A stretch of DNA of 54,367 nt from the IMG/VR virus record IMGVR_UViG_3300020591_000121, positions 1 through 54,367 of that record. One strand, written 5' to 3'. The notes under the pieces are model-generated. The model did not search any database. It was not told where the DNA came from and was given only the letters and a program-made list of their open reading frames with translations. Made by a program: the position numbers and the translations under genes. Positions 4,483 through 54,315 of the stretch are shown here, piece by piece; positions within the stretch are counted from its first letter, which is position 1; each line of letters starts with the position of its first letter. The DNA is from a virus. Taxonomy: Duplodnaviria; Caudoviricetes.

Positions 4483-5659
4483 TCTTGCCTCCCCTGGCGT
4501 CAACATCATCACCGCCTACGCTCTGGAAGCGGGAGAGGATGGAGCGGGCGAACGCTCGATCTTCATGGGTGGCGCTGATTTCTGAGAGCATCTGCAGCGC
4601 CTCTGTCATCTCCAGCACCGGTGGGCTGGAGAGGACGGCACGGGCGATGAACTCGTCATGATCATCTATCCCTGCCGTGAGGCGGTATTCACGCTCTGCC
4701 GCCTCGATAACCCTCGCCACTTCCTTCACCACATCGCTTGCGGTGGATGCAGCGGTGGGGGTTTCCTGCAAAGTTTGCAGGTTTCCTTGATCGGAGACGG
4801 CGATCTGCTCGTGAACCATTTCACTTTCTGAAAGGGTTGCAGCGGGGCCGGTTCCCTTAAGAGCGCAGTCTTGCATCGTGCCGTCTTGACCGGCGACGGC
4901 CCCACGCTCTCGCTGCAATTCTTCACCCGCATGTAGCCATCCGCTCGTGCCGATTGAAGGAATGGACTGCATCAACACGTCGCCAGGGATCGACATGAGC
5001 CACCCTAGGGTGCTCTCAGCCTCTTTCGCGGCCTTAGGCGAAAGGATGTCCCAACCGGTTTCCCCGTCCGCAGATGCCCGCCACACCACGAGCGCAAAGC
5101 CCTCATTTGCATTCCGCAGTGCCCGCAGATGGTCATTCAGGCCGGTGGGATCGACACTGTCAGGGGCGACCGTAGCGCCCGTCTCGGCTCTTACCTGTGC
5201 TTGTGGCCCCGTGTCGGTGTTGCTGCGGACTGCGTCTAGGGCGTCGTAAGCGTCGGTGAGGCATTGCCGGTCCGCTGCATGCAGGCACTCAGGCCAGTCA
5301 TCGTTCCCGACGCATCGAGGATTCGGCACGAGCGCTGCTAATTCTATGATGGCTGTATGCACGCTGTTGCGCAGTCCACGGATCGTTGCCGCCTGACGCT
5401 CGCTCTGCCCCTTCCACATGTCGCGGTTGCGCAGCGCTCTGTCCCGCTCCGCCTCTAGCTCTGAGACGCGTGTCTGCTGTGCGCGGAGGGCGGTGGCTGC
5501 TTCGCCGTTTAGTGTTTGGTCTGGCCGTGCGTGCATGTACGTGCCCGGAGTTTCACCGTTTCGGGTGGATTTGTCGTCCGCCATCATTCGGCTGACGTCG
5601 GATGCAATTACTGCCGCCGCATCCAGCCGCTCGATCAGCTTGTCGATGTCCTCAGCCAT
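4469..5659 (-). CDS. Hypothetical mosaic phage early protein
   Basis: Long ORF from MAEDIDKL with coiled-coil segments. Confidence 0.6.
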   Translation of the reverse strand: MAEDIDKLIERLDAAAVIASDVSRMMADDKSTRNGETPGTYMHARPDQTLNGEAATALRAQQTRVSELEAERDRALRNRDMWKGQSERQAATIRGLRNSVHTAIIELAALVPNPRCVGNDDWPECLHAADRQCLTDAYDALDAVRSNTDTGPQAQVRAETGATVAPDSVDPTGLNDHLRALRNANEGFALVVWRASADGETGWDILSPKAAKEAESTLGWLMSIPGDVLMQSIPSIGTSGWLHAGEELQRERGAVAGQDGTMQDCALKGTGPAATLSESEMVHEQIAVSDQGNLQTLQETPTAASTASDVVKEVARVIEAAEREYRLTAGIDDHDEFIARAVLSSPPVLEMTEALQMLSEISATHEDRAFARSILSRFQSVGGDDVDARGGKNADR

Positions 5660-11669: not shown

Positions 11670-12586
11670 TATTCGACCTCGAGGATTTCAGCGGCTCGCT
11701 TCTGCCCGGGGGGCGAGCATCGTGCGATCATTTCTGCGTTGGCCTCGCGCAACTCTTCGAGTTCGGCTTCGCTTTCGCAGTAGCGCCGATCCTCTTCGAG
11801 CTTGGCGAGGAAGCCTGCCTCGTCGGCGAGTGGCGGATCGGCATCGAGGTCTAGATCGGGAACTTCGAGGGTGGTTTCGGCCGTTTCTGCCGGTGCATGT
11901 TCCTGAACGGGAGCGGTGAGGTCGGGGATTTCGAGCTCGGCGCGTGGGGTGATGTCACGCGGCGCGCGGCGTGCATCCTCGATATCACGTTGCTCTTCGA
12001 ATATCGGGATGCCCTTGAGAACGTCAGAGGCGCCATCGCGCGCGGTCCATCCGCGGCAGCGCATTCTGAGCATCCGCTTGCGGTAGCGGAACCAAGGCGC
12101 CGTGTTCGGCACCGTGTCGCCAGAGTTGTCCTTCGCCGGGACCGTAGCGCGGTCGTCCCAGAGCTGGTTGTCCTTGGCGTCCTGAACCGAATATTCGCCA
12201 TCGATGGTCGCGCCGTCGGGCCGCGTGATGGTGCACTTGGCTGTGAGCTTATCGCCGTCGCCCTCGTACCACTCCTTAATCTTGAAGCCGTGCGACCAGA
12301 GCAGCGCTGGAATGGCATCGCCGTAGAGGCAGGCTTTGCCATTGACGACGCCGATCGTCTCCAAGGCCGTCATGGGCGGCAAGCCCAGCTCGAGCCCCTT
12401 CAGAAGCACGACAGTTACCGCCTCGGGGGTTTTCAGCTGGTAGGGAGCAAGCCTCGACGAGTGCACGAGTTGAGCGAGGCGGAAAACCTCATCGATGGTC
12501 GTCGGCACGATGCCGACGATCGGAGCGCCAGCCGACAGTCTCGAAACGGCGCGATGGCCGATACCGGATGGAGCGAGATCGTTCAT
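11669..12586 (-). CDS. RecT/Bet-like single-strand annealing protein
   Basis: GLELGLPPMTAL..I.VVNGK, PW..Y..RML..R.R....RD...DVL.G; acidic tail. Confidence 0.7.
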   Translation of the reverse strand: MNDLAPSGIGHRAVSRLSAGAPIVGIVPTTIDEVFRLAQLVHSSRLAPYQLKTPEAVTVVLLKGLELGLPPMTALETIGVVNGKACLYGDAIPALLWSHGFKIKEWYEGDGDKLTAKCTITRPDGATIDGEYSVQDAKDNQLWDDRATVPAKDNSGDTVPNTAPWFRYRKRMLRMRCRGWTARDGASDVLKGIPIFEEQRDIEDARRAPRDITPRAELEIPDLTAPVQEHAPAETAETTLEVPDLDLDADPPLADEAGFLAKLEEDRRYCESEAELEELREANAEMIARCSPPGQKRAAEILEVE

Positions 12587-13566
12587 TAGGCGGCCACCTT
12601 CTCGCTGTAGCTCTCGACGCCGGGCACGCTGGTGCCGGCCTTCGCCTGGGCGAAGCAAACCTTCTCGACGGCCTCACGGATTGTCGGATGGTCTTTGCAA
12701 TGGGCGAGCGCAGCGGCGTAGTCCGTGACGCGGAACTTCGTGATCTCGCGAAGGCCCGTTTTCCGCCCGCGCTGGCCACCCGCCTGCACACGAACCGGCT
12801 CGACGGGAGGAAGCGTCATCGGTTCGGGTTCGGGCGAGGACAGAGCCAGCGCGGGGTCGGTATCCATGAGCTTGGCGCGTTCCGCAGCCATGCGAGCGTT
12901 TTCCGCTGCGATGCGCTCTTCCTCGGCTTTGCGCTTGGCGGCGGCCTCTGCGCGCAACTTCGCGTCTTCCTCGCGCATGTATACGGTGAGGGCATCGCGC
13001 AGCTCGTTCGCTGCGGCGTCCGCTTCTTCGATCAGCGGCTTGAATTTGGCGTCAACCGCGCGAGAGGCGTCGAGGTGCGGCTGCTTCTCAGTCACGCGGT
13101 CGGCGTCTGCGCGCTTCTTGAGATCAAGCAACTTGGCGCGCATGTTGGCCACGGTATCTTTGCCGGTGCCGTCCTTGATGCCGTGCTTGCGCAGCCAGCC
13201 GAGCGCCATCGTGGCGTACTCTCTGATCTGCTCGGCCAGCGAAAGATCGCCGCTGTTGTCGCCAATGCCGGGAACCTCCGGCGCGTCACCTTCCCAGGCA
13301 TTGCCGTTGGAGAAGGCGCGCATCGCCGCTTCTTTCGTCACCGGTTTGTCGGCGCAGTAGGTCCAGACCTCGGTGGCGGGCCGGTACGTCTTAGTGGCGC
13401 CGATCAGCGCCACGAGCGCGCCATCCTTCACGTAGATACAGACGGGGAGGAACGGCCCATCCTTGTGCTGACGCATGCGGTAGTAGCCTGCATGCGGCTG
13501 GTCGGCATGGATCGGCGGCATCTTGCCGGCGAGCGCGTCATTCCAATAGGTCAAGTCGTTGCTCAT
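12586..13566 (-). CDS. Hypothetical recombination-module protein (coiled coil)
   Basis: 326-aa ORF coupled to the annealase gene. Confidence 0.75.
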   Translation of the reverse strand: MSNDLTYWNDALAGKMPPIHADQPHAGYYRMRQHKDGPFLPVCIYVKDGALVALIGATKTYRPATEVWTYCADKPVTKEAAMRAFSNGNAWEGDAPEVPGIGDNSGDLSLAEQIREYATMALGWLRKHGIKDGTGKDTVANMRAKLLDLKKRADADRVTEKQPHLDASRAVDAKFKPLIEEADAAANELRDALTVYMREEDAKLRAEAAAKRKAEEERIAAENARMAAERAKLMDTDPALALSSPEPEPMTLPPVEPVRVQAGGQRGRKTGLREITKFRVTDYAAALAHCKDHPTIREAVEKVCFAQAKAGTSVPGVESYSEKVAA

Positions 13567-15784: not shown

Positions 15785-16423
15785 TTACCGGCGCCGAGGC
15801 TGGGTGTGCTCGCTGACGACGCCCTCGATTGCATCCTGACCAACGGTATACGTCGGCCATGGCGCATTTAACGGGCGCAGTTCGTAGAGCGGGTCCACGC
15901 CCGATCGCAATACATTGAGCTGACGGATTACCGGTAAATCTTCGCTCGGCACTACCGCAAGCACCATGTCCCCTGGTTCCGGTCGAATATCCGGATCGAT
16001 GATGAGGCTGTCCCCGGGCAGGTATTTTGGTTCGTTGGCGCGGTCGTGCACCAGCAATGAAAAGCTCTCCTCCGAGCACGGAAAATGAGACCTGACCCTT
16101 TCAACAAACATGCTCGTTATTGCACGGTTTTTGACTAACTCAATATTATATCTCGGCACGATCCGACCCCCGATTTCCCCGGTTTCAGTGATCGTACTGT
16201 TCTCGTTGTGTTCTGACAATTCGCCCGAGAGCAGCATGTGGATGTCGACGTCAAAGATCGATGCCAATTGGAACGCGCGCTTGTGATTTAGATCGACGCC
16301 CTTTTCCCAATTAGAGACCGCCTGAACGCTTACACCCGTGCGCTCAGCCACGACGCTCTGAGACCAGTCACGGTCCTTCCGAAGCGTCCTGATCAGCTTT
16401 CCAACACGCTTCCAGTCGACCAC
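15785..16423 (-). CDS. CI-like repressor (XRE HTH plus degenerate S24 domain)
   Basis: WSQSVVAERTGVSVQAVSNWE HTH; S24-like C-terminal domain; divergent from cro. Confidence 0.9.
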   Translation of the reverse strand: MVDWKRVGKLIRTLRKDRDWSQSVVAERTGVSVQAVSNWEKGVDLNHKRAFQLASIFDVDIHMLLSGELSEHNENSTITETGEIGGRIVPRYNIELVKNRAITSMFVERVRSHFPCSEESFSLLVHDRANEPKYLPGDSLIIDPDIRPEPGDMVLAVVPSEDLPVIRQLNVLRSGVDPLYELRPLNAPWPTYTVGQDAIEGVVSEHTQPRRR

Positions 16424-17413: not shown

Positions 17414-18037
17414 ATGATTATTGGGGGCTTTCATTCTCGTCTGTTTGGTCCGTCGCGCTCTGAAACGCGGGCGGCGGTAGAGGGTTATCGCGATCTTCTG
17501 CGCGAGAGCATCCCCGGGGAGACGTTCCCCGTCACCGATCTGGCGCGGGACTACGAGGACGCCCGGCAGAAGCACGGCTGGCCGCCGCTCGATGCGACGA
17601 CGCTGCTGCGTGAGCTGGAGGCCCTCGGCATTCGCCAGTTCATGGCCATCAAGGTGCCGTGGGCGGTGAACGGTTCGCCACCGCCCGTTGCCCTGCCGAA
17701 GCCGGCCGAACCGGAAGGCCGCTTCGAATTCGCCGAACCCGCAGCCGAACCGTTCGAACCCGAACCGGTCATGGCTTCGGTTCGCCCTCTGCGAACGGTT
17801 CGGATCGTCAATTCGGGAAAGGTCTCGAAGGCCGAAGCGCTCGCCGACCTGCAGGCGCGCCTGGCGCGCGGCGAGACCATCCCCTCACAGCAGGCGCTCG
17901 CGGAGAGCTGGGGCCGCGCCGAGGGCACGGTGAGCGACTGGATGTCGGCATGGCGCCGCGCGGGGCTCATCCCGCAGCCGGTGCGGGACTGGCGCTCGAA
18001 CAGCTATCGCCTGCCGAACAGCGCGAGGGCCGCATAG
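17414..18037 (+). CDS. Soluble DNA-binding protein with C-terminal HTH (paralogous domain to 24635-25699)
   Basis: C-terminal SQQALAESWGRAEGTVSDWMSAW HTH; Pro/Glu linker encoded by a DNA palindrome cluster. Confidence 0.75.
   Translation: MIIGGFHSRLFGPSRSETRAAVEGYRDLLRESIPGETFPVTDLARDYEDARQKHGWPPLDATTLLRELEALGIRQFMAIKVPWAVNGSPPPVALPKPAEPEGRFEFAEPAAEPFEPEPVMASVRPLRTVRIVNSGKVSKAEALADLQARLARGETIPSQQALAESWGRAEGTVSDWMSAWRRAGLIPQPVRDWRSNSYRLPNSARAA
17668..17802. repeat. Intragenic GAAC-N-GTTC palindrome cluster A
   Basis: GAACGGTTC 17668-17676, CGAACCGTTCG 17746-17756, CGAACGGTTCG 17792-17802, plus several CGAAC/GTTCG half sites. Confidence 0.85.
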
Positions 18038-18478: not shown

Positions 18479-19918
18479 ATGCTGAACAGCCTCACGAAGC
18501 AGGAGATTGGCGTACCCGACGCCGAGATGCGTCAGCCGCCGTTCAATCTCGAGCTCGAGCAAGCCCTGCTGGGTGCGCTGCTGATCAACAACGCCACCTA
18601 TGAGCGTGTGGCAGGCATCATCGACGGGCAGCACTTCTTCGACAGCCTGCACGCGCAGATCTTCGATGTGATCGCCGACCTCGCCGGAAAGGGGCGCGCA
18701 GCGACGCCTCTCACGCTGCGGACCTATTTCGAGGATGCGCCGGACATATCTGCTGGCCTCACCGTGCCCCAGTACCTCGGCACGCTCGCCAGCAAGGCGA
18801 CGACGGTCATCAACGCGGTCGACTACGCCCGCGCCATCGTCGATCTCTCCACCCGCCGCGCGCTGATCGTCATCGGCGAAGACGTCGTCAACAGCGCCTA
18901 TGACGCCTCCGCGACCATCGCCCCGCAATCCCTCATCGAGGATGCCGAGGCGCGGCTATTCGAGATCGCGGAGAAGGGTCGCAACATCCGCGACGAGATC
19001 ATGTTCGCGGACGCCTCGCTGCAGGCGGTGAAAAGCGCGAACGATGCATACCGGAGCGGCGGGCGCATGCGCGGGCTGTCAACGGGGTTTGAAGACCTCG
19101 ACAACAAGCTCGGCGGGCTCCAGCAGTCCGATCTCATCATCCTCGCCGGCCGCCCCTCGATGGGCAAAACGGCGCTCGCCACCAACATCGCCTATAACGT
19201 TGCGCGCCAAGGCCTTGCCGTCGATTTTCGCTCGCTGGAAATGAGCGCCGAGCAATTGGCGTTGCGCATCCTCTCCAGCGTCTCGGGCATCCCCAGCGAG
19301 AGGCTGCGCCGGGGGGATTGCAGCGAAGACGACATGCGCAGGCTCATCGAGGCACAGCGCAAGATCGCCGACACGCCCCTGATCACCGACGAGAGCGGCG
19401 GCCTTTCCATCGCCCAGCTAGCAGCGCGGGCCAGGCGCACCAAGCGCAAGCACGGAACGGAACTAATCGTCGTCGACTACCTGCAGCTCATGGCGGGCAA
19501 CAAGCGCGCGCGCGACGGGCGGGTGCAGGAGGTTACGGAGATCACCACCGGCCTCAAGGCGCTCGCCAAAGAGCTGCAGGTACCGATCATCGCGCTGTCG
19601 CAGCTCAACCGCTCCGTCGAGGGGAGGACGGAGAAGCGACCGCAGCTTTCCGACCTCCGCGAGTCGGGATCGATCGAGCAGGACGCCGATATCGTGCTCT
19701 TCGTCTACCGCGAGGAGTACTACGTCGAGCGCCAGCAGCCCGATCCGTCGGACATGGAGAAGACTGCCGAGTGGATGCGGAACATGGAGCGCGTCGCCGG
19801 CAAGGCCGAGGTCATCCTCGGCAAGCAGCGCCACGGCCCCACGGGCGTCGTGCAGATGGCTTTCGACGGCAAGCTGACGCGGTTCTCCGATCTGGCGCGG
19901 GAGTATGCCTCGCCATGA
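18479..19918 (+). CDS. dnaB: Replicative DNA helicase (phage-encoded)
   Basis: PPFNLELEQALLG, AGRPSMGKT, SLEMS, VDYLQL, LSQLNR, DLRESGSIEQDAD, KQRHGPTG. Confidence 0.96.
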   Translation: MLNSLTKQEIGVPDAEMRQPPFNLELEQALLGALLINNATYERVAGIIDGQHFFDSLHAQIFDVIADLAGKGRAATPLTLRTYFEDAPDISAGLTVPQYLGTLASKATTVINAVDYARAIVDLSTRRALIVIGEDVVNSAYDASATIAPQSLIEDAEARLFEIAEKGRNIRDEIMFADASLQAVKSANDAYRSGGRMRGLSTGFEDLDNKLGGLQQSDLIILAGRPSMGKTALATNIAYNVARQGLAVDFRSLEMSAEQLALRILSSVSGIPSERLRRGDCSEDDMRRLIEAQRKIADTPLITDESGGLSIAQLAARARRTKRKHGTELIVVDYLQLMAGNKRARDGRVQEVTEITTGLKALAKELQVPIIALSQLNRSVEGRTEKRPQLSDLRESGSIEQDADIVLFVYREEYYVERQQPDPSDMEKTAEWMRNMERVAGKAEVILGKQRHGPTGVVQMAFDGKLTRFSDLAREYASP

Positions 19919-23133: not shown

Positions 23134-23366
23134 GAAACGACCGAGACTGGCGCGCCATCGACCGGCAGCGGCGCGCGGATGATTGGCGCTACGCTGGCGA
23201 GTTCTTTCTGTGGCCGCTCTGGGCGATAGGAGCGGTTATCACCATGGCGATGGTTGGCGCCGTCGTCATCCTTATCGCAGCCTGCGCTGTGTTGGTGCGG
23301 ATGCTGCCGTGGATCGTTGCCATGTTCGCGGCGATCATCCTCGCTCGATGCGCGGGGGTGCTGTAA
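23130..23366 (+). CDS. Small membrane protein
   Basis: Two hydrophobic segments; coupled. Confidence 0.6.
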   Translation: MRNDRDWRAIDRQRRADDWRYAGEFFLWPLWAIGAVITMAMVGAVVILIAACAVLVRMLPWIVAMFAAIILARCAGVL

Positions 23367-23752
23367 TGCGAGTGCTCGTCTGCGGCGGTCGAAACTACGC
23401 CGACAAGGCCAAGGTCTATGCCACGCTCAATGCGCTTTGTCTCGATCGCGGCATGAAGGGTGACGAGGACGCCTACGGCAATTGGATGCCGAAAGACATG
23501 CGGATCATTCACGGCGGCGCCCCCGGCGCCGACGCTCTGGCCGACGATTGGGCCGTCGTGAATTGGGTCCCGGTCGACGAGTTCAAGGCCGACTGGACCA
23601 TGCATGGCCCTGCTGCTGGCCCCATTCGAAATCAACACATGCTTGACGAGGGTAAGCCCGACCTCGTTGTGGCGTTTCCGGGCGGGCGCGGAACGGCCGA
23701 CATGGTGCGCCGAGCGCGCGATGCTGGCGTCGAGGTGATCGAGATAGGATAA
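23366..23752 (+). CDS. SLOG-family (YspA/DUF2493-like) protein
   Basis: VLVCGGRNY, IIHGGAPGAD, AAGPIRNQHML, AFPGGRGTADM. Confidence 0.85.
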   Translation: MRVLVCGGRNYADKAKVYATLNALCLDRGMKGDEDAYGNWMPKDMRIIHGGAPGADALADDWAVVNWVPVDEFKADWTMHGPAAGPIRNQHMLDEGKPDLVVAFPGGRGTADMVRRARDAGVEVIEIG

Positions 23753-23764
23753 CGGAGAGATTCA

Positions 23765-24019
23765 ATGACCAAGCTCTCTTACGCGTGGGATGCGTTTCTA
23801 GTGGCGTTGATCATCGGCGGGTGGTTTGCCCTCTGCACGGCGCTCGTTGGCGCTCTGCGGGCCGCTGGCTTCGATCTAGAGGGGTGGCAGGGCACAGCGG
23901 TGATCCTTGCTGCGCTCGGAGCCATTCTCGGTGCCGCGCTGCGCATGGTGCGCGTGCGGGCGTACGATGCCGGTTTCGACCGCGGCCGTGATGGCGAGGC
24001 GGACGAGGCGCCGTTCTGA
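23765..24019 (+). CDS. Small 2-TM membrane protein
   Basis: GGAGA RBS; two hydrophobic helices. Confidence 0.6.
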   Translation: MTKLSYAWDAFLVALIIGGWFALCTALVGALRAAGFDLEGWQGTAVILAALGAILGAALRMVRVRAYDAGFDRGRDGEADEAPF

Positions 24020-24060: not shown

Positions 24061-24555
24061 ATGCGCACCATCATCATCCTTGCCGCTCTCGCGGTGCTGT
24101 TTCCAACCGTCAGCCATGCCGAAGACTGGTCGCTGAGCACCTGGCAGCAGGGCCCGCGCTCGCCGTCTGCCTACGGGCACGCCAACAGAGCCAAGCCGAA
24201 GTGGCGCGCAACCGTACACCGCAGGAAACACCGGGAAGCACAGCCGCAAGAGAAGCAAGAGGTTCGGCTCTACCGGGCAGAGGATAAACCGCTTCCCGAG
24301 GGCGTAACATGCCAGCCCCAGGTGAGAGGGCTGGGAACCCAGTGGGTGGGGGAGCAGGGCGCACTCGATGCCGCCAAGAAAGATTGGATGGAAAGAGTGC
24401 GCTATGACCTGGGGGAATCCTACCTCGACATGGCGAATGCCCGCGATTTCGTCTCCCGTTGCGGGCGCGTGTCCATCGGTGAGGCGTTGGGGCAGGTGAT
24501 GTATCGCTGCGAGATCAAAGCACAGCCTTGCAAGGGCGTGTTCGCGGCGAAGTAG
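24061..24555 (+). CDS. Exported hypothetical protein
   Basis: AGGAGG RBS; signal peptide ending SHA; four Cys. Confidence 0.7.
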   Translation: MRTIIILAALAVLFPTVSHAEDWSLSTWQQGPRSPSAYGHANRAKPKWRATVHRRKHREAQPQEKQEVRLYRAEDKPLPEGVTCQPQVRGLGTQWVGEQGALDAAKKDWMERVRYDLGESYLDMANARDFVSRCGRVSIGEALGQVMYRCEIKAQPCKGVFAAK

Positions 24556-24576
24556 GACACCTAACGGGGTAGCAGG

Positions 24577-24609
24577 AAAAAGCCCCGGCAGCCGTGAGGC
24601 CACCGGGGC
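24577..24609 (-). terminator. Intrinsic terminator for the antisense cassette
   Basis: GCCCCGG/CCGGGGC stem with an A5 tract on + (U5 on -). Confidence 0.6.
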
Positions 24610-24634
24610 AGATGAAACATGCAGAACTTGCAGG

Positions 24635-25699
24635 TTACGCGGTCGCGAGCGCTTTGCATCGGCCTTGCTGGGTTCGGGCAGGGACCAGGCCCGACCGTTC
24701 CCACTCGCGGATCCACTCCGACATCGTCGATTTGGCGACGCCGTACCGTTCGCGCAGCTCGTCCTGGGAGCCGAACCGTTCGCCGAGGGCAAGGCGCGTC
24801 ACCAGATCGGCGGCGGCCTCGTCCTTCGTGTAGCCGCCACGGCCAGGGCGGTTCGGACGTTTAGGCGAACCGTTCGGCTGGCGAACCGTCTCTCCACCCC
24901 CGTTATCCGAACCGTTCGGCTGCGGGGCCGGCGAGGCGAACCGTTCGCGAAGCTCCGTCAGTTCGGCATCCGAAACCGAATTCAGTTCGGATGTCGGCTT
25001 CAGTTCGGCTTTCGCTTGCCGCTTCGGGCTGAACGCGAACCCGAACGAGACGATGGTGCCGAACTCGAGGAACAGGGTGGTGAAGAATGGGGCCAGCAGA
25101 ATGGCCAGCGCCCGAACCTGATCCTTGTCGTAACCGAGCGCCGCCGCGACATTGGCGAACTGTTCGGCCTCGGCTGAGACCGGCTTGGCCGGTTCGAGAA
25201 CCTGCAGCCGGGCTTCGAGGCCCTTCAGCGAGTTCTCATAGAAGGCGGCTGTCGCCTTCTTCGCCTTGCACTTCGGCCCGTCACCGCCGGCACACTCAGT
25301 ATCGCGGGCTTCGCGCTTGGCCCTGACGGCTTCGCGCTCGGCGGCGATCTGCGCTTCCAGATCGAGACGCTGGGCCACGAGCTGGTCGTGCTCGACGCCG
25401 GAGACGAGGGTCTTCTCTGCCTGGCGGCCGACACTGGAATAAACAACAAGCCCGGTGCCGGCGAGGAAGAGGGCCGTAAAGCCGAGGACCGACAACCAGT
25501 GGCGTTGACGGCGGGCCATATCGGCAAGGTGGCCGACCATCAGCGTGCCGGAGACGGTGACGAGGGTGAGCCAGTGCTTGAGCGTGATTTCCGCCCCGTG
25601 CATGAGGACGTCCTCGAAGAGGATCGCCAGCGTGCCTGAGGCGAGAACGACGCCCGCCGCGATTGCAAGGCCGCGGCCGGCCGTGTTAGAGTTCGTCAT
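24635..25699 (-). CDS. Membrane-anchored DNA-binding protein: 3 TM, coiled coil with Cys pair, TM, linker, HTH
   Basis: Four hydrophobic helices; ECAGGDGPKC hairpin; C-terminal SQDELRERYGVAKSTMSEWIREW HTH; AGGAAGGA RBS. Confidence 0.85.
   Translation of the reverse strand: MTNSNTAGRGLAIAAGVVLASGTLAILFEDVLMHGAEITLKHWLTLVTVSGTLMVGHLADMARRQRHWLSVLGFTALFLAGTGLVVYSSVGRQAEKTLVSGVEHDQLVAQRLDLEAQIAAEREAVRAKREARDTECAGGDGPKCKAKKATAAFYENSLKGLEARLQVLEPAKPVSAEAEQFANVAAALGYDKDQVRALAILLAPFFTTLFLEFGTIVSFGFAFSPKRQAKAELKPTSELNSVSDAELTELRERFASPAPQPNGSDNGGGETVRQPNGSPKRPNRPGRGGYTKDEAAADLVTRLALGERFGSQDELRERYGVAKSTMSEWIREWERSGLVPARTQQGRCKALATA
24742..25166. repeat. Intragenic CGAAC-N-GTTCG palindrome cluster B
   Basis: CGAACCGTTCG at 24772, 24866, 24908 and 24937; CGAACTGTTCG at 25156; one-mismatch copy at 24742; many half sites. 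Confidence 0.9.
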
Positions 25700-25780
25700 A
25701 GCAATGTTCCTTCCTAGGGTTCGTTGCGGTTTCAGAGCCCGGAGCGGTTGCCGCCTCTCCGGGCTTTTGCGTTTCTGATG

Positions 25781-25847
25781 GGCCTCATCAGCGAGGGCTT
25801 GACCCTCGGACCATCGCCGCCCCGTGTGAGGCGGCGAGGTTTCGGCC
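25781..25847 (-). ncRNA. Type II hammerhead ribozyme
   Basis: GGCC-GAAA-CC[UCGCCGC..GCGGCGA]UG-GUC^-CGAGGG(UCAAG)CCCUCG-CUGAUGA-GGCC: full core and three stems; predicted cut between 25809 and 25808. Confidence 0.88.
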
Positions 25848-25848
25848 T

Positions 25849-25974
25849 TTAGTTCGGGCGCTTCCGCTTCAGTTCTTCACGGATCGCGCTGACAACCATC
25901 CAGGTGATGCCGATGGCGGTGGTGACGAGGAGTACAATCCCGAAGATGTTGCCGGCCAGTTCTGCGTTAGACAT
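25849..25974 (-). CDS. 41-aa single-TM peptide (not in ORF track)
   Basis: MSNAELAGNIFGIVLLVTTAIGITWMVVSAIREELKRKRPN; GGAGA RBS; basic C-tail. Confidence 0.7.
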   Translation of the reverse strand: MSNAELAGNIFGIVLLVTTAIGITWMVVSAIREELKRKRPN

Positions 25975-26015
25975 TTGCTTTCTCCATGTGTTTCCAGCAC
26001 TTGGCTGATGGAGTT

Positions 26016-26119
26016 AATATGGCATATGCGTATATACGCGGCAATACTCGACGCAACTTATCCCCTGTAACAATCTTCAAATGTTCGTGAATTGACGTGT
26101 TGGCCCGTGTATATACGTT
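26016..26119. promoter_or_regulatory. Divergent promoters, each containing a GTATATAC palindrome
   Basis: Minus TTGCCG-N17-CATATT with GCGTATATACGC (26028-26039) in the spacer; plus TTGACG (26092) with GTATATAC (26109-26116). Confidence 0.6.
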
Positions 26120-26126
26120 GGAGTTC

Positions 26127-26279
26127 ATGGAAAAGCGCAAGGCGATCTCGCTGAAACTACCGCCAGAGCTGCTCGACAAGCTCGACGACTACCGCAAGCG
26201 CCAGCCGCACGAGCCCACGCGAACGCAGGTGATCGAGGATGCGATCCGGGCTATCGTCGAGAAGGGGAAGCGCAAATGA
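26127..26279 (+). CDS. Ribbon-helix-helix (CopG/Arc-like) regulator
   Basis: KAISLKLPPELLDKLD...TRTQVIEDAIRAIV. Confidence 0.8.
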   Translation: MEKRKAISLKLPPELLDKLDDYRKRQPHEPTRTQVIEDAIRAIVEKGKRK

Positions 26280-26755
26280 GATGGCTGGTCGCGCTCGCTG
26301 TGTTGATCGGCGCCATCGGTCTGATCGCCACCACCGACCCTCATCGGCCGTCGTCGAGGCCCACCCCGTCAGTGGACGAGAACGCCAAACTCGATGCGGA
26401 AATAGCGCACGCCCTCAAGACGACTGGCGTATATGTGCCGAAGAACGCACGGAAGGCGCCGCCACCCTCTGAAGTGGATCGTGTCAAGATCACCGATTTC
26501 ACTTGGGGCAAAACGGGCTTCGGCAGTGTGATGGAGGCGAGTTTCACCGTGCGCAATTCGTTGCCCTATGCGGTCAAAGACATTGCGGTGAAGTGCAGTC
26601 TGCACGGCGAGAGCGGCACCGAAATTGGTAGGGCGGCCAGGACCATTTACAGGCGCTTCCCACCCGGCGCTACGCGCGTAAAGGACTTCAGCATGGGGTT
26701 CATCAATGATCAGGCCCGGGGCGCGTGGTGCGAGGTTGTTGGGGTACAGAAGTGA
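26276..26755 (+). CDS. Membrane-anchored/exported protein with Ig-like beta domain
   Basis: N-terminal hydrophobic anchor; FTVRN...VKDI.V.C...G.SGT.IG pattern; ATGA-coupled to the RHH gene. Confidence 0.7.
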   Translation: MRWLVALAVLIGAIGLIATTDPHRPSSRPTPSVDENAKLDAEIAHALKTTGVYVPKNARKAPPPSEVDRVKITDFTWGKTGFGSVMEASFTVRNSLPYAVKDIAVKCSLHGESGTEIGRAARTIYRRFPPGATRVKDFSMGFINDQARGAWCEVVGVQK

Positions 26756-26782
26756 CGTAGCCAAGGATGGATCGGAGCAGCG

Positions 26783-27085
26783 ATGAGCGGCGTTGATGCC
26801 TTAGCTGAGGGCTTTTACTGGGTTCTGATGCGAACCGGGGAATGGTCGGTCGCGCAGGTCGACTTTATTGGCGATAGCGATGACGAAAAAGGCGATGCGT
26901 CTGCGTGGAGTTGGTCTGCCATCGGCAGCGAGGAGCCATGGGCGCTTGAGGACTTCGCGGAAATCGGCCCACGCATTGAGCCGCCCGACGACAGGTCACC
27001 CCTGTTGCCCGAGGACGGACTTTTGAACGTGCTCGAAGAGAAGCCGCCATCTACGGATCCTATCATTTGGGGCAAGAAGAAGTAG
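26783..27085 (+). CDS. Acidic Trp-rich hypothetical protein
   Basis: GGAG RBS; EGFYWV...W..IG......EIGPRIEPP. Confidence 0.6.
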   Translation: MSGVDALAEGFYWVLMRTGEWSVAQVDFIGDSDDEKGDASAWSWSAIGSEEPWALEDFAEIGPRIEPPDDRSPLLPEDGLLNVLEEKPPSTDPIIWGKKK

Positions 27086-27117
27086 GCGTGGCGAAGGATA
27101 AGCTGGAGGGGAGATAG

Positions 27118-27323
27118 ATGTCGGACGGCCCAGATAAATACGCATCCGCGATCGCGGCAAATGTAGCCTTGGAGTGCTGGTGAAGACGCTAGTCGCAAGC
27201 AAAGCGGTTGATAAATTCAAGTTCGATCAGGCGCTTGCTGACGCTCTGCGGCGACTGAATGCGTCAGACGATGCCGCGCAGCACGAGGCAGCTAAGGCAC
27301 TCCAAGCTATCTATTGGCGGTGA
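27118..27323 (+). pseudogene. Possible frameshifted small gene
   Basis: Strong RBS and ATG but stop after 21 codons; the -1 frame continues about 50 helical codons to TGA 27323. Confidence 0.35.
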
Positions 27324-27367
27324 GTTGTTTCACGCGTGAAACAGGATAGAGCCTAGGAGACCGGGAA

Positions 27368-27604
27368 ATGCCGCGAGACGACCAAAGCCGCCTAGGCGGA
27401 CTGCAATCGACCCTGGACGATGTGTTCGCCGTGGTGCGCAGCGTCGCCGAGTTGCAGCCCGCGTATGCGAGCGAAACGGACGGCTCGCTGTTTTGCTTCT
27501 TCTGCGACAAGCACATTGCTGGGGCGCCAGACGAGCAGCTTCTCGCGCACAATCACGAGCTGACGTGCCCATGGGTGCAGGCGCAGCGCTTGGCCCGGAA
27601 GTGA
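27368..27604 (+). CDS. Small putative Zn-binding protein
   Basis: AGGAG RBS; CFFC...H...CPW. Confidence 0.55.
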   Translation: MPRDDQSRLGGLQSTLDDVFAVVRSVAELQPAYASETDGSLFCFFCDKHIAGAPDEQLLAHNHELTCPWVQAQRLARK

Positions 27605-27702
27605 TCACGGCGATAGATTGTCCGAACTGTGGCCGAATTGCACTAGACCCGCTGGCCGAACAGAAGCATCTATTTTGTCAGCGTCGAGAGTTGCGAAGAG
27701 GC

Positions 27703-27725
27703 GGCCCCAAATCAGGGGCCTTTTT
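27703..27725 (+). terminator. Intrinsic terminator
   Basis: GGCCCC/GGGGCC followed by T5. Confidence 0.65.
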
Positions 27726-27961
27726 CATGCCCGCCGCGCTCTCAACGCGCTCTGATCACACCGAAATTCTCGAATGCTGCCCCGCCCGCTCGCAAGACGG
27801 CGCGCCGAGCCTCACATGACCTGATGCTTGAACGTAGCGGCGCCTAGCCAGATCGGCGGCGGTGGCGGCTCTATTCTTCGGCCCTGCTTGTTACGCCTCA
27901 CTGAGGTGCTGCTCCCCGCAAGGATGCGGTCCAGGGCCGATCCCTTTCCCTGGTGATCCTC

Positions 27962-54240: not shown

Positions 54241-54315
<75 letters not shown>

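Follow-up and report, generated by a model that had tools for sequence, protein, structure and literature searches.

The 54,367-nt virus record IMGVR_UViG_3300020591_000121, a soil-metagenome contig (the window, meaning this whole stretch of DNA), shows the gene order of a temperate, lambda-like phage and carries a two-armed divergent unit (24572-27728) between its replication genes and its terminase and packaging genes. On balance, the unit is read as an accessory transcription unit of a temperate phage, operated by a ribbon-helix-helix (RHH) protein and bounded by terminators, in which a membrane regulator led by a hammerhead ribozyme stands opposite a slot for moron genes. The parts of the unit are of known kinds; its new content is the family of the membrane protein and the fixed place of the ribozyme in the leader.

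Each side of the unit is closed by an intrinsic terminator. The left arm ends on the - strand at 24572-24609 (stem 24582-24609, in which 10 of 12 pairs are G-C, and a tail of 5 T), a site that also matched the terminator part of unrelated small-RNA models in an E-value scan with Rfam. Read on the + strand, this hairpin has no T-run. The right arm ends on the + strand at 27703-27728 (stem region 27703-27720), and right-arm terminators occur at the equivalent relative position in two related loci, L001 and L003. Terminators of its own are therefore found on both strands of the unit, as expected of a phage moron. The initial annotation had proposed a divergent unit at this place, which the two terminators bear out, and all the elements that it listed are present at or close to the positions given. 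Its end coordinate, 27085, is too short: the right arm runs through three small open reading frames (ORFs) to the terminator, and the unit ends at ~27728.

For comparison, 21 viral loci were retrieved via an alignment of 33 relatives of the membrane protein, which is thus constant among them by selection.

Control region and its ribbon-helix-helix protein

The intergenic region between the arms measures 152 bp and has a G+C content of 44%, compared with 63% for the window. To its right lies the gene of a 50-amino-acid (aa) RHH protein (26127-26279, + strand), the stop codon of which overlaps the start of the next gene. Against the Pfam profile RHH_1 (PF01402), the protein reaches 20.1 bits (E 5.8e-4), 0.4 bits short of the cut-off of 20.5; the copy in locus L004, 82% identical, lies above it with 22.9 bits. 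The window protein also matches phrog_876, a "transcriptional repressor", with an E value of 2.7e-6.

The control region contains two copies of GTATATAC, at 26030 and 26109, and these are the only ones in the 54-kb window (0.04 expected; two copies in 0 of 100 shuffles). The first forms the core of an operator-like 12-bp palindrome, O1 (26028-26039). The second, O2 (26109-26116), is located 11 nt ahead of the RHH start codon. O1 occupies the 17-nt spacer of a leftward promoter-like pair (26016-26044, - strand), composed of a -35-like hexamer at 26039-26044 and a -10-like hexamer at 26016-26021, and these hexamers align across five loci.

An unbiased search of viral and metagenome contigs for relatives of the RHH protein added three distinct loci, with identities of 98, 82 and 60%. 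The distinct loci with an RHH protein of this type are hence four in number: the window, L004 (= L125 = L127), L126 and L128. Exactly two copies of GTATATAC stand upstream of the RHH gene in all four, 79-95 bp apart and within ~110 bp, so that each has repeated palindromic sites at the gene's own promoter; in the five loci with other RHH types, the motif is absent. L128, with the 60% identical protein, keeps both copies even though the neighbouring genes and the rest of the intergenic DNA differ. Because both copies recur with every relative found, the RHH protein probably recognizes the GTATATAC sites and sets the level of both arms, and the presence of protein and operators beside quite different genes in L128 suggests that they travel as a module. 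The neighbours in that locus (309-1369) are a divergent 101-aa ORF with a winged-helix-like sequence and a downstream open ORF of 125 aa.

RHH control of both promoters is well supported by this comparison. The putative repressor, itself a product of the right arm, would bind the two GTATATAC palindromes, ~79 bp apart; one bound site would be the spacer of the leftward promoter and the other the promoter or start region of the RHH gene itself, and the bound protein would keep both arms at a set level. Co-regulation of both arms, as put forward in the initial annotation, fits the position of O1 in the leftward spacer, that of O2 by the RHH start and the recurrence of the pair. Of the two sigma70 promoters with a palindrome inside each that it also claimed, the leftward one may correspond to the conserved hexamer pair around O1. 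Two points count against the promoter assignment: a scan of 24300-27400 for sigma-70-like consensus sites gave none (shuffle mean 0.8), and for the rightward promoter the sole TATA-like hexamer lies 11 nt from the RHH start codon. As for the proposed independence from CI, its one indication is that the CI-cro intergenic region and the control region of the unit have no words of at least 9 bases in common.

Hammerhead motif and leader of the left arm

The left transcript would carry, in this order, a variable gene for a small membrane peptide, a type II hammerhead, a stable hairpin and the conserved membrane-protein gene. The hammerhead motif is found at 25781-25847 on the - strand, with predicted cleavage between 25809 and 25808. 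Its topology is that of type II: along the RNA come the 3' strand of stem II, GAAA, the stem III hairpin, GUC, the stem I hairpin, CUGAUGA and the 5' strand of stem II. Stem III is long and has an internal loop; stem II consists of 4 bp. The full catalytic core (CUGAUGA box, GAAA box, core-adjacent A-U pair and NUH triplet) is present in the window as well as in L001, L003 and L066.

A pattern of core and stem II, taken from the window, occurs in 103 stretches of viral contigs, which represent 94 distinct sequences. The segments left unconstrained by this pattern close into stem III in 84 and into stem I in 85 of the 94 matches; for shuffled segments, the corresponding numbers are 40 and 9 of 470. 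In 18 hammerhead sequences, all 234 cells (234/234) are standard pairs and five of the six stem I pairs are changed on both sides. None of 500 shuffles reaches this pairing, and no slid register comes close. In L003, stem I is fully compensated. A covariance model trained on 20 other viral hammerheads gives a single hit in the 54-kb window, at 25781-25847, with 59 bits and an E value of 2e-11. As a sequence motif, the hammerhead is genuine. Perreault et al. (2011, PMC3088659) report type II hammerheads to be common in bacteria.

Upstream of the membrane-protein gene and on the same strand, the motif is found in the window, L001, L002, L003, L005, L006 and L066, with two copies in L005 and in L066. 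In these two loci (L066, 2502-2917, - strand; L005, 4678-5364, + strand), the type II motifs flank one acidic ORF of 73-81 aa (81 aa in L066). The upstream motif of each pair has a stem II of 3 bp and hence falls outside the first pattern.

The gene ahead of the ribozyme in the window is a 41-aa ORF (25849-25974, - strand) with a single hydrophobic, probably transmembrane (TM) stretch, a G+C fraction at third codon positions of 0.78 and a GGAG 8 nt before its ATG. What stands at this place varies: 58-aa ORFs with two TM segments are present in L001, L002 and L004, an acidic 69-aa protein in L003 and none in L007. Seven loci keep the GC-rich hairpin of the membrane-protein leader (25737-25764, - strand), with 5 of its 11 pairs changed on both sides. 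Self-cleavage, a step read from the motif, would separate the peptide gene from the membrane-protein gene in the message and leave the downstream mRNA with a structured end carrying a 5'-hydroxyl. The expression of the conserved gene would in this way be uncoupled from whichever small gene stands upstream. Read on the + strand, the GC-rich hairpin has a T-run behind it (25737-25775) and could stop read-through of the early operon antisense to the membrane-protein gene.

Contigs from four soil metatranscriptome runs (four studies) match pieces of 25717-27594 with zero differing letters, and the CI region is represented in two of the runs. These runs were selected for containing this stretch, and the contigs stand for presence in RNA libraries, where DNA carry-over is possible, and carry no strand, level or RNA ends. 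Stretches lacking a contig (27944-28607, most structural genes and most of the membrane-protein gene) were not counted as evidence. The contigs are only a hint that the unit is transcribed.

Several observations weigh against an active ribozyme. No hammerhead was returned by an Rfam scan of the whole window at the gathering score or by a scan of 2.9 kb at E<=10. In a scan of 181 nt, Hammerhead_II (RF02276) comes out on top as a full-length match with every core base and GUC at the cut site (E 0.13), at 18.6 bits, a score that does not reach the gathering score of 37. The 18 aligned sequences were chosen among those that fold and were all found by the window-derived pattern, so that only the stems are independent evidence. 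The window copy shows no complementary run of at least 3 bases that would allow a pseudoknot between loop I and the 3' tail; likewise, 56 of the 94 subclass matches have no such run, and according to PMC3088659 this pseudoknot is present in most, not all, type II hammerheads. The minimum-energy fold places CUGAUG of the hammerhead in an alternative hairpin (25775-25791, - strand), where it pairs with a CAUCAG just downstream. L004 and L007 lack precisely the hammerhead block, with flanks that still align on both sides, and the ribozyme is therefore not essential to the unit. Finally, two of the RNA contigs (25717-25926 and 25769-25919) cross the predicted cut site.

The score under the Rfam cut-off, the missing pseudoknot, the alternative hairpin, the contigs across the cut site and the two loci without the block would suit a hammerhead that is an inactive relic or a set of stabilizing hairpins, in a leader acting by transcription attenuation or by termination of antisense read-through from the early operon, as would the T-run behind 25737-25764 on the + strand and the L006 counterpart of this hairpin, which has its T-run on the sense strand. 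Such a relic is nevertheless unlikely, since no core base is lost and covariation is seen in stems I and III, both in the relatives and among the 94 viral examples. Moreover, several relatives have two motifs flanking a small ORF, and PMC3088659 describes prophages in which several hammerheads often flank single genes, some of these ribozymes having cleaved in vivo. As to the alternative hairpin, in 16 of the 94 matches (viral loci L022-L101) the bases that follow stem II start with (C)AUCAG and are able to pair with the core CUGAUG; this recurring element might delay or gate cleavage.

Membrane winged-helix protein

The conserved gene behind the putative ribozyme (24635-25699, - strand) encodes a 354-aa membrane protein. 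In its AlphaFold2 model (predicted local distance difference test, pLDDT, 83.5), three TM helices are followed by a helical hairpin (~101-167) and a fourth TM helix, and a disordered linker then leads to a winged helix (~292-351). The C-terminal 65 residues resemble winged helices of the GntR/MarR/PurR type with a Foldseek probability of 0.97-0.99. Among 33 family members, helix-turn-helix profiles were found as HTH_23 in 20 and as MarR_2 in 14; in divergent members, the C-terminal winged helix-turn-helix is weak (4 of 11 at E<0.01, all under the cut-off). Model, Foldseek and profiles together place TM segments and a DNA-binding domain in one polypeptide. Lys and Arg number three in loop 2 and four after TM4, and loop 1 is acidic. 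From this positive-inside count only, both short loops and the winged helix are predicted inside and the hairpin outside. A pair of Cys at the hairpin tip is invariant in 12 close members.

A word-based search, in which 8000 candidates were scored, gave 146 relatives at E<=0.001, all unnamed, two of them from Hyphomicrobium genome bins. By tblastn, the membrane protein has no match in 50,697 GenBank phage records, and it also falls outside the families of PADLOC, Pfam and NCBIfam. A one-genome-per-species collection contained no relative by either pattern set, within the limits that the patterns set to these scans. In fold searches, the membrane part matched nothing more specific than helical bundles and alpha-hairpins (Z 9-10.7, below the chance level for helical models). 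DUF4407 (PF14362) was considered and rejected: it scores 17.1 bits against a cut-off of 31.3, on the coiled-coil part only, and appears in 3 of the 33 members at E<=0.1. A DUF2637 row in the viral library (E 0.1) was not used.

We read the protein, as modelled, as a phage transmembrane transcription regulator. It would be a membrane-tethered one-component DNA-binding protein with four TM helices, an outward hairpin bearing the Cys pair and a cytoplasmic winged helix. Its candidate site, the weakest step of the proposed mechanism, would be an element of the TCAC-N6-GTGA type in the shared control region. This conserved inverted repeat (26077-26090, 2 mismatches in the window) is present in the control region of seven of the eight loci that have the winged helix of the membrane protein. 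With at most 1 mismatch, it occurs in none of the 13 loci without that winged helix (L010 has a 3-mismatch match).

Three considerations argue against the assignment of this site. Across the window, one site was found where 2.6 are expected at 3 mismatches, i.e., there is no enrichment. The repeat could merely be promoter DNA shared by close phages. A soluble winged-helix paralogue is encoded in the early operon, and therefore another protein could bind the repeat. The inverted repeat is a candidate binding site for the winged helix, no more. The paralogue is a 207-aa ORF (17414-18037, + strand) just upstream of the helicase genes, whose terminal winged helix is 43% identical to that of the membrane protein over 63 residues (E 5e-13); L001 has an equivalent one at 12430-12618.

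A bolder proposal, which we regard as speculative and rather doubtful, is that the 354-aa protein founds a family of phage transmembrane regulators: the Cys hairpin would sense an envelope or redox cue, a swappable winged helix would hold phage control DNA at the membrane, and the hammerhead would set the dose independently of the upstream cargo. If true, the prophage would make the early/late decision, or immunity, depend on the condition of the cell envelope or on the arrival of a related phage.

The surroundings of the gene in the related loci bear on a different explanation, possible but not probable, in which the phage backbone has a second switch, made up of the membrane winged-helix protein and the divergent small DNA-binding protein and comparable to the immI region of P22. 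This switch would gate the late or packaging genes or confer superinfection immunity, the cargo merely being lodged beside it. The membrane-protein gene runs opposite to its flanking genes in nearly all 21 loci, and packaging genes are often near: the terminase large subunit is 1-3 kb away in L008, L009, L010, L011, L015 and L019, the small subunit is nearby in L003 and an HNH endonuclease in L007. A small DNA-binding ORF is divergent or upstream in 11 of the 20 loci examined (RHH/Arc in eight, HTH_3/HTH_31 in three), although Pfam recognized none in the other nine. From one locus group to another, the membrane protein changes its DNA-binding end and the small regulator its type, as is seen with immunity specificities, and the winged-helix paralogue in the early operon would also suit a switch. 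On the other hand, the window, L001 and L003 all have a right-arm terminator ahead of the conserved late genes, no site similar to the control-region elements is found ahead of the late genes in the window, and L128 has the same RHH protein and operators without the membrane protein.

The adjoining packaging genes would also fit a protein that, in the manner of protein p16.7 of phage phi29, anchors phage DNA at the inner membrane during replication or packaging rather than controlling transcription. The architecture, a membrane anchor with a coiled-coil hairpin and a C-terminal DNA-binding domain, is suggestive in this respect, and the winged helix is common to the early protein just upstream of the helicase gene. 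Yet the gene is transcribed counter to the early and late operons from a putatively repressor-operated promoter, which is more typical of genes expressed in the lysogen, and the protein resembles no solved DNA-tethering protein in sequence or fold; tethering is thus considered improbable. Transcription control remains the preferred reading of the membrane protein.

Right arm, surroundings and known systems

The gene that overlaps the RHH stop codon encodes a 159-aa protein (26276-26755, + strand) with an N-terminal hydrophobic anchor or signal and a C-terminal beta-sandwich. The latter (residues 70-158) was modelled from the single sequence with a pLDDT of 62.8, its best match in the PDB being 4gio (E 7e-4), and belongs to a large unnamed family of 1475 representatives. 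The protein has no Pfam or NCBIfam family and no tblastn match in GenBank phages; an assignment of the beta-sandwich as an "FxLYD" domain found no support in NCBIfam. It is followed by a 100-aa acidic, Trp-rich orphan (26783-27085, + strand; 6 Trp, 22 Asp plus Glu, 8 Lys plus Arg), for which a word-based search gave no relative and the Atlas no more than leads. A small gene then appears to be split over two frames (27118-27323, + strand; 21 aa and 49 aa), its counterpart in L001 being a single 68-aa ORF (4701-4907). An RNA-library contig covering 26812-27594 is identical in letters, and the split is therefore not an assembly slip specific to the window. The last ORF of the arm (27368-27604, + strand) encodes 78 aa, contains Cys and His, and has no family.

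Synteny does not bear out one conserved cassette: by tblastn, the window RHH protein is found in only one of the 21 related loci (L004), and the TM peptide and the 159-aa and 100-aa proteins in none. The description as moron-like in the initial annotation holds, as the genes behind the RHH gene differ among related phages at the same slot. In L001 there is a 137-aa ORF without Pfam family and with a lipoprotein-like N-terminus (read by eye), in L002 (4622-5276, - strand) a HigB-like toxin (PF05015, 31.5 bits, above the cut-off) with an HTH_3 partner, and in L006 and L007 small membrane proteins. Owing to this variable cargo, the right arm would be a moron slot, its cargo mostly targeted to the envelope. 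The more specific suggestion of superinfection exclusion or defence was not substantiated by PADLOC-DB 2.0, which matches none of ten proteins at E<=0.01.

RHH proteins are common antitoxins, and the overlap between the RHH stop and the next start, a weak match of the RHH protein to phrog_497 (HicB-like, E 0.074) and the HigB-like toxin of L002 might together evoke a toxin-antitoxin pair. We hold this to be very improbable: the downstream 159-aa protein, with its anchor and beta-sandwich, has no toxin family, the gene behind the RHH gene differs in every related locus, and the HigB-like gene of L002 has an HTH partner of its own.

To the left of the unit, the window encodes a CI-type repressor with HTH_3 and Peptidase_S24 domains (15785-16423, - strand) and a rightward early operon with a DnaB-like helicase (18479-19918) and a DnaD-like loader. 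The downstream block contains the terminase small subunit (from 28398) and large subunit (from 28987) and the portal gene (from 30502). An ORF of the SLOG family (23363-24019, + strand; Pfam YAcAr, E 3e-17) is directly followed by an 84-aa ORF with two hydrophobic helices; the two may resemble pairs of SLOG and two-TM effector proteins. A tRNA gene (54244-54315, - strand, 70.5 bits) is located at the right end of the window, which is possibly the attachment-site side of the prophage.

Phage morons are accessory genes that bring a promoter and a terminator of their own; the outer-membrane or lipoprotein exclusion genes of lambdoid phages are examples. Like these, the unit has a terminator-bounded cargo that is variable at a fixed slot and mostly envelope-targeted. 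Unlike them, its slot has a dedicated RHH protein and a conserved divergent partner gene, and the cargo matches no known exclusion or defence family.

Regulators of the ToxR type have an N-terminal DNA-binding domain and one TM helix. With ToxR, CadC and TcpP, as treated in a wider survey (PMC10269533), the membrane protein has in common that TM segments, an outer domain and a predicted cytoplasmic DNA-binding domain are joined in one polypeptide; it differs in being phage-encoded, in starting with a four-TM bundle and ending with the winged helix, and in belonging to no common family with them. A word search of the survey finds no mention of phage regulators. The fixed position of this membrane family at the early/late junction suggests an undescribed role in phage regulation or immunity.

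RiboJ is a synthetic ribozyme insulator in which a hammerhead and a hairpin precede the ribosome-binding site. The leader of the membrane-protein gene has the same order of variable upstream RNA, hammerhead, stable hairpin, ribosome-binding site and gene; in contrast to RiboJ, it is natural and of type II, and its insulating effect is putative. The motif resembles type II hammerheads (RF02276; PMC3088659) in its permuted topology (closed stems I and III, open stem II), in its full core and in its GUC triplet. As described for prophage hammerheads in PMC3088659, it stands between genes of a phage transcript, with relatives that have two copies around one small ORF. It departs from a typical RF02276 member by its score below gathering, its long stem III with internal loop, its 4-bp stem II, the pseudoknot not found and the core-pairing CAUCAG, and its cleavage is a prediction. 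What hammerheads do in bacteria and phages has, according to PMC3088659, been an open question since they were discovered in large numbers. The present locus is a clean natural test of this role, with the motif at a fixed leader place, a variable small gene on one side and a conserved gene on the other; some close relatives are without just the ribozyme block, and others have two copies.

Phage repressors of the RHH type (CopG/Arc/Mnt-type) with palindromic operators are known, for example, from the immI region of P22. The unit differs from that region by having one RHH protein instead of two, with putative binding, and a membrane protein rather than an antirepressor as the partner. As with the immI-type repressors of P22, a small RHH gene stands at a divergent control region with two palindromic sites on the promoters, and the RHH gene with its two GTATATAC sites would represent a compact, portable and reusable control module.

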